Virus record (IMG/VR): IMGVR_UViG_3300043432_000083
Coordinates: 1-64,000 of that record
Reading direction: 5' to 3' (one strand)
From: a virus
Taxonomy: Duplodnaviria; Caudoviricetes
Length of the DNA: 64,000 bases
Below are positions 1 through 14,519 of the stretch, piece by piece. Under the pieces are notes generated by a model. It did no database searches. It saw only the letters and a program-made list of their open reading frames with translations, and had not been told where the DNA came from. Each line of letters starts with the position of its first letter. The first letter of the stretch is position 1. The translations under genes and the position numbers were made by a program.

Positions 1-174
1 AGCCAGGGAGCGCGGCGTGATAACCATCCGCGTCCCACCTGGTAACGGGGTCGCAGCGGAGGGGCTGCTTGGCCAGGTCCCGGAGAGGCTCGCGGGGAAC
101 ATCAAAGGTCCTGCTCGGAGAACAAAACGGGATCCGCGTTAGCGATCCATCCTCTATATTACCGAGACAGGACG

Positions 175-237
175 CCCTCGTCGGGTGACTGAGACCCGGC
201 CTGATGACGGCCCGACCAGTGCAAGGGGCCGAAAGGG
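175..237 (+). ncRNA. Hammerhead ribozyme, type III (stem III open), with one extra nt after the CUGAUGA core
   Basis: Stem III CCC 175-177/GGG 235-237; U178-A234; cleavage triplet CUC (C179); stem I GTCGGGT 180-186/ACCCGGC 194-200; core CTGATGA 201-207; stem II GGCCC 209-213/GGGCC 226-230; GAAA 231-234; loop I ACTG complementary to loop II CAGT. Confidence 0.85.
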
Positions 238-248
238 AGGAAGTTAAA

Positions 249-398
249 ATGAAGGAATGGGCAATCAAAACCCAAGGTCAAATTCTTATGTTCTGCTCCT
301 CGGAACAATCCGCAACCGTTCATTGTATTGCACTGCGGCGCGGTGGCTGGGGACTCGTGTATGTCGAACGAGTTCTCAGTAGGAGGACAGCATGCTAG
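249..398 (+). CDS. Hypothetical phage early protein
   Basis: ATG 249 with SD GGGAGG 235-240; 49 aa. Confidence 0.5.
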   Translation: MKEWAIKTQGQILMFCSSEQSATVHCIALRRGGWGLVYVERVLSRRTAC

Positions 399-5827: not shown

Positions 5828-7432
5828 ATGAAAACCGTCAGCATCATCCCAGACAAACAGCTCTTCTGCGTTAGATTTCCTTACGATCCGGTGATGGTAG
5901 CTAAGGTCAAAGACCTGCCGGGTCGTCGGTGGAATCCTGCCGACAAGGTCTGGACACTTCCGGTCAGCGAGGAGTCGCTGGAGGCGCTGCTGTCCTGGGA
6001 ATTCCAGCCGTCTGATGGCGTCAAGGCATGGCAGGAGCGGATGTCGGCTCCGCCTACAGCTGCCATCGACGAGTCGAAGCTGGACCCGCGCCTGATGCCG
6101 TACCAGCGTCAGGGTGTGCAGGGGATCGTCAATCGACGTGGCAGAGTCCTACTGGGAGATGACATGGGCCTCGGAAAGTCTTGCCAAGCCCTGTCCTGGC
6201 TGCGACTGCATCCAGACGCCACTCCGGCGATTGTAGTCTGCCCCAGTAGCCTAAAGCTCAACTGGGAGCGCGAGATACGAATGTGGATCGGACAGGAGCC
6301 GAAGGTCGCTATTCTCTACGGGCGCAATGGGACAGGACTACCGGAGGCAAACATCTACATTGTCAACTATGATATCCTTGCGGCATGGCTGATGGAGCTG
6401 ACTGGTAAGGGATTCAAGACAGTGATTGTAGATGAAAGTCATTTCATCAAGGGGCAAAGTCAGCGGACAAAGGCAGTCAAGGGGCTGTGTAAGGGCGTAT
6501 CGAATGTGCTGATGCTGTCTGGCACGCCCATTGTGAATCGTCCGATGGAGGCATACAACACACTGAACATTCTAGCACCAGAGCATTTCCCAAGTCGGTT
6601 CAAATACGGCCTGCGATATTGTGCAGGCTATCAATCGCGATGGGGGTGGGACTTTACCGGCGCGTCGAATACGGACGAACTAAACAAGAAGCTGATCGAT
6701 ACGGTAATGATCCGGCGTCGTAAGGAGGATGTGCTCAAGGACCTGCCGGAGAAGGTCCATGCGGTCGTCCCGATGGAGATCAGCAACCGCAGCGAGTACC
6801 GCAAGGCGCAGGAGGATTTCGTCTTATGGCTACGAGAGAAGGGCGAGAAGGTCCGGGCGGAGTCGGCGTCGCGGGCCGAGGCGTTAGCCACGGTCGAAGG
6901 ACTGAAGCAGCTCACGATCAAGGGCAAGTTGGATGCCTGTCTGGAATGGATTGAAAGCGCATTGGAGCAGGATAATAAGCTATTAACCTTTATGAATCAC
7001 AAGCTGGCGGTCGATGCAGTGATGGCGCGGTTCGGTGACAAGGCTGTCAAGGTAGATGGATCGGTGGTGGGGGACGATAGGCAGGTGGCAGTGGATCGGT
7101 TTCAGACAGATGACACGGTCCGACTGTTCGTTGGCAACATCAAAGCAGCGGGCGCGGGATTAACTCTGACTGCAGCGACGCACATAGCGTTTCTCGAATT
7201 TCCATGGGCGCCAGGGGACGTGGATCAGTGCATAAGTAGAGCATATGCGCGAGTGAATAATTTACACGGGATTAATGTCTGGTATCTGATCGCCAAGGAT
7301 ACCATCGAGGAGCGGATCTGCAAGCTGCTGGACGACAAGCGGAAGGTATTGGGGCGAGTGCTGGATGGGAAGACAAGCGGAGCGGACGAGCAGGGCATAT
7401 TCGAGGCATTGTTGGCTGCGCTGAAGGAGTAA
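5828..7432 (+). CDS. SNF2-family helicase with N-terminal HARP-like domain (SMARCAL1-like annealing helicase)
   Basis: GDDMGLGKS (motif I), IVDESH (II), LSGTP (III), AAGAGLTLT (V), QCISRAYAR (VI); N-terminal RFPYDPVMVAKVKDLPGRRWNPADKVWTLP. Confidence 0.92.
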   Translation: MKTVSIIPDKQLFCVRFPYDPVMVAKVKDLPGRRWNPADKVWTLPVSEESLEALLSWEFQPSDGVKAWQERMSAPPTAAIDESKLDPRLMPYQRQGVQGIVNRRGRVLLGDDMGLGKSCQALSWLRLHPDATPAIVVCPSSLKLNWEREIRMWIGQEPKVAILYGRNGTGLPEANIYIVNYDILAAWLMELTGKGFKTVIVDESHFIKGQSQRTKAVKGLCKGVSNVLMLSGTPIVNRPMEAYNTLNILAPEHFPSRFKYGLRYCAGYQSRWGWDFTGASNTDELNKKLIDTVMIRRRKEDVLKDLPEKVHAVVPMEISNRSEYRKAQEDFVLWLREKGEKVRAESASRAEALATVEGLKQLTIKGKLDACLEWIESALEQDNKLLTFMNHKLAVDAVMARFGDKAVKVDGSVVGDDRQVAVDRFQTDDTVRLFVGNIKAAGAGLTLTAATHIAFLEFPWAPGDVDQCISRAYARVNNLHGINVWYLIAKDTIEERICKLLDDKRKVLGRVLDGKTSGADEQGIFEALLAALKE

Positions 7433-14217: not shown

Positions 14218-14519
14218 GAACACTCGGAGAAATCATTGAGTTAACTCGGAATGGTGAACGTCCAGACTACGACGAGCTTCGTTATGCTATTTGTGCGCTC
14301 GATGCTCTATCGACATTCGATTCGCACGGATTACAGCGTGCATCGAATATCGAGTGGGGAGAGAGCTTCAATCGTTGGAAGCAGGCGCTGGGCAAATCCC
14401 CAAAGGATTGGATTGGCTGGAATAATGACCCGGAGAATCCGGAGTTCCTTGCGCGTCGACGATTAGTTATAAAGTTCACCAAGAAGGTCATGAAAGACAT
14501 GAAGGAGGAGACGCCATGA
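14214..14519 (+). CDS. Hypothetical phage protein
   Basis: GTGA overlap; 101 aa. Confidence 0.65.
   Translation: MRTLGEIIELTRNGERPDYDELRYAICALDALSTFDSHGLQRASNIEWGESFNRWKQALGKSPKDWIGWNNDPENPEFLARRRLVIKFTKKVMKDMKEETP

Follow-up and report, generated by a model that had tools for sequence, protein, structure and literature searches.

A probable type III hammerhead ribozyme overlapping the ribosome-binding site of the first early gene of an uncultivated phage

The locus studied here raises the question of whether an RNA that folds like a hammerhead ribozyme, and whose stem III runs into the Shine-Dalgarno (SD) sequence of the next gene, cuts the early mRNA of a phage, and whether such a cut would serve the processing of the transcript or the control of its translation. 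The DNA analysed, referred to as the window, is a stretch of 64,000 nucleotides and forms the first 64 kb of the record of an uncultivated virus (97,760 bp, with 127-bp terminal repeats). Position 175, at which the candidate begins, lies just inside the arbitrary start of the assembly, and the true upstream sequence is found at the end of the record. The original prediction had placed a type III hammerhead at 175-251 and had regarded it as a ribozyme-gated translation switch.

The full hammerhead core and the three stems of this prediction are all present in the sequence, and they were found again by an independent descriptor, which also returned the type III topology for 175-237 (Table 1). 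The core strand C3-U4-G5-A6-N7-G8-A9 is complete, and so is G12-A13-A14 within the GAAA at 231-234; A15.1 pairs with U16.1 (A234-U178), and the base at position 17 is not a G (C179). Three helices of 7, 5 and 4 bp leave the core. Two of them, stems I and II, are also part of the minimum free energy (MFE) structure predicted without constraints, and the stem I hairpin has a pair probability of 0.8-0.99 in local contexts. The predicted complementarity of the loops, ACUG at 188-191 with CAGU at 217-220, is likewise there, with a chance probability of about 0.07-0.11, which is weak taken alone. The GGG at 235-237, which forms most of the 3′ strand of stem III, lies within the SD as had been claimed.

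The cleavage triplet CUC (177-179) is atypical; the NUH rule permits it. The pair G209-C230 (G10.1-C11.1) is present, but an extra base, C208, separates G209 from A9. This base, absent from the first account of the site, is able to pair with the catalytic G12, and the pair C208-G231 is predicted with a probability of about 0.9.

Table 1. Features of the candidate hammerhead and its surroundings. Positions refer to the window unless the genome is named.
Feature	Position	Strand	Basis or remark
Promoter-like TTGACT-17-TATAGT	genome 97434-97462	+	Promoter scan; best sigma-70-like site of the AT-rich divergent region
Non-coding leader, 3′ part	1-174	+	Whole leader about 345 nt, with its start about 165 nt upstream of the window
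Second upstream anti-SD, UCCUCU	150-155	+	Potential partner strand of GGAGGA 236-241
Stem III, 5′ strand, CCCU	175-178	+	Sequence, descriptor; U178 = U16.1
Stem III, pairs	C175-G237, C176-G236, C177-G235, U178-A234	+	Sequence, descriptor
C17; predicted cut	C179; between C179 and G180	+	Core geometry
Stem I hairpin	180-200 (strands 180-186/194-200)	+	7 bp, one U-G; 7-nt loop GACUGAG at 187-193
Core CUGAUGA (C3-A9)	201-207	+	Sequence
Extra C between A9 and G10.1	208	+	Descriptor
Stem II hairpin	209-230 (strands 209-213/226-230)	+	5 bp; 12-nt loop at 214-225 with CAGU 217-220
Core GAAA (G12, A13, A14, A15.1)	231-234	+	Sequence
Stem III, 3′ strand, AGGG	234-237	+	Sequence, descriptor
SD, GGGAGG	235-240	+	8-nt spacer, then ATG 249-251
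First early ORF (ORF1), 49 aa	249-398	+	Stop overlaps ATG 392 of the next gene
Type II hammerhead, Rfam RF02276	1660-1731	+	54.7 bits, gathering score 37; predicted cut after C1690

The descriptor used here asks for CUGANGA, GAAA, U16.1-H17 and three helices with stems of at least 4/3/3 bp, and allows at most one inserted base. The segment 175-237 is its sole type III match on both strands of the 97,760-bp genome, and the descriptor also recovers the type II hammerhead known to Rfam, at 1661-1723. Dinucleotide shuffling of the genome (300 shuffles) yielded 7 permissive matches, or about 0.02 per genome, and none with all stems of at least 7/5/4 bp. When the + strand of the 18-kb early region was shuffled 400 times, 7 matches of any topology were obtained, one of them with at least 16 bp in total. 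The chance rate for 4 kb of one strand is about 0.004 for any topology and about 0.0006 for a match as well paired as the candidate.

Comparison with the Rfam hammerhead models by Infernal, by which the original prediction was to be verified, did not bear it out: no model matches 175-237 even at E<=10, in searches with 101 nt, 2.5 kb or the whole genome, and the candidate stays below the gathering score of RF00008 Hammerhead_3 (48.5 bits). The MFE structure of the local segment has no unusual stability (z -1.18) and uses a shifted register of stem III. Counted by hand, all structural constraints of the type III RNAMotif descriptor published by Perreault et al. in 2011 (PMC3088659) are present in 175-237, and the descriptor bonus is -7, which is exactly at the cut-off (-7 or lower) before the G/C-balance penalty. 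As the candidate shows, the Rfam type III model overlooks phage forms that have an extra base behind A9, and such sites are probably under-counted.

The type II hammerhead at 1660-1731 is the sole match to Rfam in the window at gathering thresholds. It sits exactly between the stop codon TAA at 1658-1660 and the SD at 1735-1741, which is followed by ATG at 1749, and it carries an extra base, U1720, after A9, in the same position as C208. Its hairpins stay at 55-100% in long contexts, and it does not pair with its own SD. In this ribozyme, loop I and the GCCA tail are joined by a 4-bp pseudoknot. The two hammerheads lie on the same (+) strand, 1,423 nt apart, and both end just before a ribosome-binding site (RBS); the predicted cuts after C179 and C1690 are separated by 1,511 nt.

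To follow the inserted base, viral contigs were scanned for CUGAUGA-N-GGCAGCCAA; the scan gave 79 loci (L032-L110) with 59 unique sites. At these 59 CUGAUGA-N-GGC sites the base N is U in 47 cases, C in 6, A in 5 and G in one. Forty unique sites pass our type II descriptor, and most of them follow a stop codon. Thirty of these 40 phage hammerheads are followed within 25 nt by an SD and a start codon; in the set of 40, the SD mostly lies 10-25 nt beyond the ribozyme and is not part of its helices. As the cleavage triplet, 38 of the 40 have GUC and none has CUC. Judged by these counts, the succession of stop codon, ribozyme and RBS is a recurrent phage design, and the inserted base after A9 is a normal variant. 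The type II hammerheads with an inserted base are widespread and often form arrays of four to six per locus (L035, L052, L078, L093), in which each member has a stop codon, the ribozyme, an SD and a start codon.

No DNA similarity of the locus to catalogued phages was detected. Of the 8 matches in viral contigs to a pattern of the core, stem II and GAAAGGG, none has a hammerhead fold, and at least some fall within coding sequence. The loci related by the proteins of 1885-2700 and 925-1212, by the helicase or by the protein of 616-909 are distant and show neither synteny of the leader nor a matching ribozyme; for the neighbouring proteins, identity to the nearest relatives is 30-60%, and synteny is absent. 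The alignment of the ORF1 family led to no locus in the viral or genome contig collections. A homologous copy of 175-237, by which conservation and covariation could be judged, was not found in the viral and genome collections searched. Other phage loci that bear hammerheads, 0.9 Mb in all, contained none of type III; RF00008 gave nothing in 50 other phage records, and when a covariance model was derived from the candidate by itself, its only matches in the 0.9 Mb overlapped type II and type I hammerheads in part. The helicase relative L020, a distantly related phage, contains a well-formed type I hammerhead at 14243-14303, with a stem II (GGCCCG/CGGGCC) much like that of the candidate, and a second copy at 6985-7045 in which stem I is unpaired. 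Both L020 copies have the same one-base insertion as the candidate and a candidate-like stem II, and neither is reported by Rfam at the gathering score.

The region upstream of the candidate has the features of a transcribed, non-coding leader. In the AT-rich divergent region before window position 1, five promoter-like sites are found on the + strand, compared with 0.7 expected. The leader up to C179 has 63% G+C and a purine-rich + strand, and its score is non-coding in all six frames. An ORF of 144 aa that crosses the site on the minus strand was rejected as coding (codon score -0.165, antisense-type composition). The leader was also rejected as a known RNA family, with no match to Rfam and no recognisable aptamer, and as an unusually stable structure, its fold z-score being -0.09. 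Together with the near-consensus promoter before it, the leader takes up genome positions 97434-97633 and window positions 1-174, and it carries at 112-125 the sequence TGCTCGGAGAACAA, which loosely resembles a boxA antitermination element. This boxA-like sequence is the only copy in the window and is not significant (0.29 expected).

Six small ORFs follow the candidate (249-398, 392-598, 616-909, 925-1212, 1209-1403 and 1400-1660), and the gene 616-909 uses the same GGGAGG hexamer as its SD. The codon usage of ORF1 is weak and non-coding-like (likelihood ratio 0.16), and the ORF was not found in the word-indexed protein collection. An exhaustive phmmer search detected two small homologues: P0006 (43 aa, 64% identity, E 3e-8) and P0010 (44 aa, 56%, E 1e-4). 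Since ORF1 has homologues among small proteins, a strong RBS and a stop codon overlapping the next start, it is taken as a real small gene. The family consists of proteins of 43-49 aa with the motif SEQxAT..CIALRRxGWGLVYVE and has no match in Pfam. A related unit, LxLRxxGWG, is found in 3-8 copies in longer proteins; the comparison took in P0005 and P0012 besides P0006 and P0010.

From the geometry of the core and its surroundings, we conclude that 175-237 is probably a genuine, somewhat atypical type III hammerhead, which would cut the leader of about 345 nt off the early mRNA. Counted in favour of a ribozyme were the uniqueness of the match, the low chance rate, the certified neighbour with the same insertion, the promoter and the homologues of ORF1; counted against it were the lack of an Rfam match, the CUC triplet, the C208-G12 pair, the borderline descriptor score, the competition by the leader and the lack of a homologous copy. 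The leader would belong to the first rightward early operon of the phage. While the anatomy can be read directly, we infer from it each of the following steps. Once the polymerase has passed G237, stems I (7 bp), II (5 bp) and III (4 bp) would form together with a 4-bp loop-loop pseudoknot, and the RNA would cut itself between C179 and G180. The leader would depart with a 2′,3′-cyclic phosphate, and the short stem III would then dissociate. The remaining mRNA body would begin with a 5′-OH at the stem I hairpin and would present GGGAGG in single-stranded form 8 nt before the AUG of ORF1. The structured 5′-OH end proposed originally agrees with this geometry, in which the predicted cut would leave the 5′-OH flush with the hairpin. 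Acting together, the cuts after C179 and C1690 would free a unit of 1,511 nt with the six small genes. We propose that the main job of the ribozyme would be transcript processing that gives a defined, protected 5′ end, and that unmasking of the SD would be a secondary effect of modest size.

It is possible, if doubtful, that the main selected function is instead a ribozyme-gated translation switch, in which the SD would be masked until self-cleavage and translation of ORF1 would depend on the ribozyme. Hammerheads engineered to free an SD on cleavage do work in bacteria (PMC5367253, PMC12192606). At the locus, the strands that could mask the SD are CCCU(C) at 175-179, in two registers, and UCCUCU at 150-155. 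In the segment 170-240 alone the hammerhead fold dominates, with stem probabilities of 0.66-1.0, and the SD bases G235-G237 belong to stem III; the shifted register, C176-C179 with G237-G240, covers four of the six SD bases and has a predicted probability of 0.97 in 140-241 and 0.61 in 100-290. The pairing of 150-155 with 236-241 is part of the MFE structure of 150-290 and has a low ensemble probability in other contexts. All three masking strands lie 5′ of the predicted cut, a geometry that fits the release of an anti-SD strand claimed by the original prediction. The probability that 235-240 is unpaired is predicted to rise from 0.003-0.04 before cleavage to 0.12 after it, a 3- to 40-fold gain. 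An SD base at position 15.2 would force the CUC triplet, and this double constraint would explain so odd a choice. The masking helices, however, are only 4-6 bp long, and the predicted cost of opening the SD falls from 2.0-3.6 to 1.3 kcal/mol on cleavage, a change of only about 0.7-2.3 kcal/mol in a calculation that covers secondary structure and leaves out tertiary structure. Unmasking of the SD by cleavage is plausible, the predicted effect being real but modest. The type II ribozyme of this genome and most of the 40 related type II hammerheads leave the SD outside their helices, and no sensor domain or ligand is evident, which points to a constitutive delay and not to a switch. What stands of the earlier interpretation is a well-formed type III fold on the transcribed strand of a non-coding leader, but only three of the six SD bases lie in the 4-bp helix and the gain in accessibility is modest; that this is a gated translation switch can only be inferred. 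Most related phage hammerheads precede an RBS and leave it unpaired. Processing of the transcript would account for the place before the RBS just as well as translation gating would.

A hammerhead-like fold without useful activity, arisen by chance or decayed, seems rather unlikely; 175-245 would then be a structured 5′ untranslated region that tunes translation of the uncut mRNA. Inactive hammerhead-like RNAs are listed by Perreault et al. (PMC3088659), and the lack of an Rfam match, the inserted C able to pair with G12, the CUC triplet, the borderline score with the published descriptor, the competition of the leader with stem I and the z-score of only -1.18 would all agree with such a fold. 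The chance rates given above are low for it, and the site lies in non-coding RNA directly before an RBS and near a certified hammerhead with the same insertion. This insertion, C included, is common in natural phage hammerheads, and CUC is within the NUH rule. Far less probable is an allosteric hammerhead under the control of the leader, in which the leader segment -51..-42 (CGACGGGGGC) would pair with G174-G183 and block the ribozyme, the 3′ strand of stem I would pair with the SD, and some signal received by way of the leader would decide whether the mRNA stays uncut and untranslated or is cut and translated. The pairing of G174-G183 with this segment does appear when the whole leader is included, and stem I then falls to 2-6% at equilibrium; the full-length MFE structure contains a leader-ribozyme helix of 10 bp and, apart from this helix, pairs C196, C197, C200, C201 and U202 with G240, G239, G236, G235 and A234. 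The leader is, moreover, long and without another visible role. Its complementarity to the ribozyme is, however, not clearly above chance (p 0.04-0.19 against shuffled leaders), and the helix was rejected as a significant feature; co-transcriptional folding favours local helices, and no aptamer was recognisable in the Rfam scan of the leader.

The preferred reading, a self-cutting hammerhead that mainly processes the transcript, can be set beside several known systems. Clustered phage hammerheads have been known since 2011, when prophages were described as carrying hammerheads of mixed types clustered about one gene or a short block of genes (PMC3088659). In the same study, Watson-Crick pseudoknots that join stem I to stem II are reported for each of the three hammerhead types, and those of type III are linked to a stem I longer than stem II by 2 bp; the RNAMotif descriptors of the study have 'one base allowed after core' and include a pair of a type III and a type II hammerhead within 2 kb. 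With 7 bp in stem I and 5 bp in stem II, the candidate shows the published difference. If a cluster is defined by two or more hammerheads that share a strand of phage DNA, lie no more than 2 kb apart and stand around small genes, 175-237 and 1660-1731 form one, with six small ORFs between them. The likeness to the clustered phage hammerheads extends to the two topologies on one strand within less than 2 kb, the bracketing of small phage genes, the predicted loop-loop pseudoknot, the extra base after A9 and the proposed polycistronic cutting. The candidate differs from them in its position, which is the 3′ end of a long non-coding leader and not the space between two genes, in the overlap of stem III with the SD and in its CUC triplet. 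Neither the SD overlap nor the CUC triplet is discussed in PMC3088659, PMC6155905 or PMC6765202, and the words ribosome and translation are absent from the 2011 text. According to reviews, what prokaryotic hammerheads do is still an open question; the processing of polycistronic RNA into pieces of differing stability or translation is mentioned there (PMC6155905, PMC6765202).

With the type III family RF00008 (clan CL00010) the candidate shares the core CUGANGA, GAAA and UH, as well as capped stems I and II and an open stem III. It differs from this family in having no match at E<=10, a C after A9, and loops of 7 and 12 nt with Watson-Crick complementarity. The engineered SD-masking hammerheads, which include aptazymes and thermozymes (PMC5367253, PMC12192606), resemble it in that the SD is paired to a strand across the cleavage site, from which the cut would free it. 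These devices are designed, however, and have a sensor aptamer or thermometer and an extended masking helix, whereas the candidate pairs three to four SD bases and shows no visible sensor.

Phage hammerheads at the head of early operons might conceivably, though we think it improbable, be natural cleavage-dependent translation starters, with the SD held in stem III or a competing register until the leader is cut; at this locus, how fast the cut is made could in addition depend on the leader segment that is complementary to the cleavage site. If true, this would give bacterial and phage hammerheads a regulatory job and would make them the natural counterpart of the engineered SD-releasing ribozymes. 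As a test case the site is compact, combining a promoter, a disposable leader, a ribozyme that shares helix bases with the SD, and a small conserved ORF, and at 175-251 transcript processing and translational unmasking should be separable.

In RiboJ-type insulators, a hammerhead placed before the RBS strips off a variable leader and leaves a hairpin at the new 5′-OH end. RiboJ itself was engineered from a plant satellite ribozyme. The candidate resembles it in placement and in the predicted removal of the leader, and differs from it in being a natural phage sequence.
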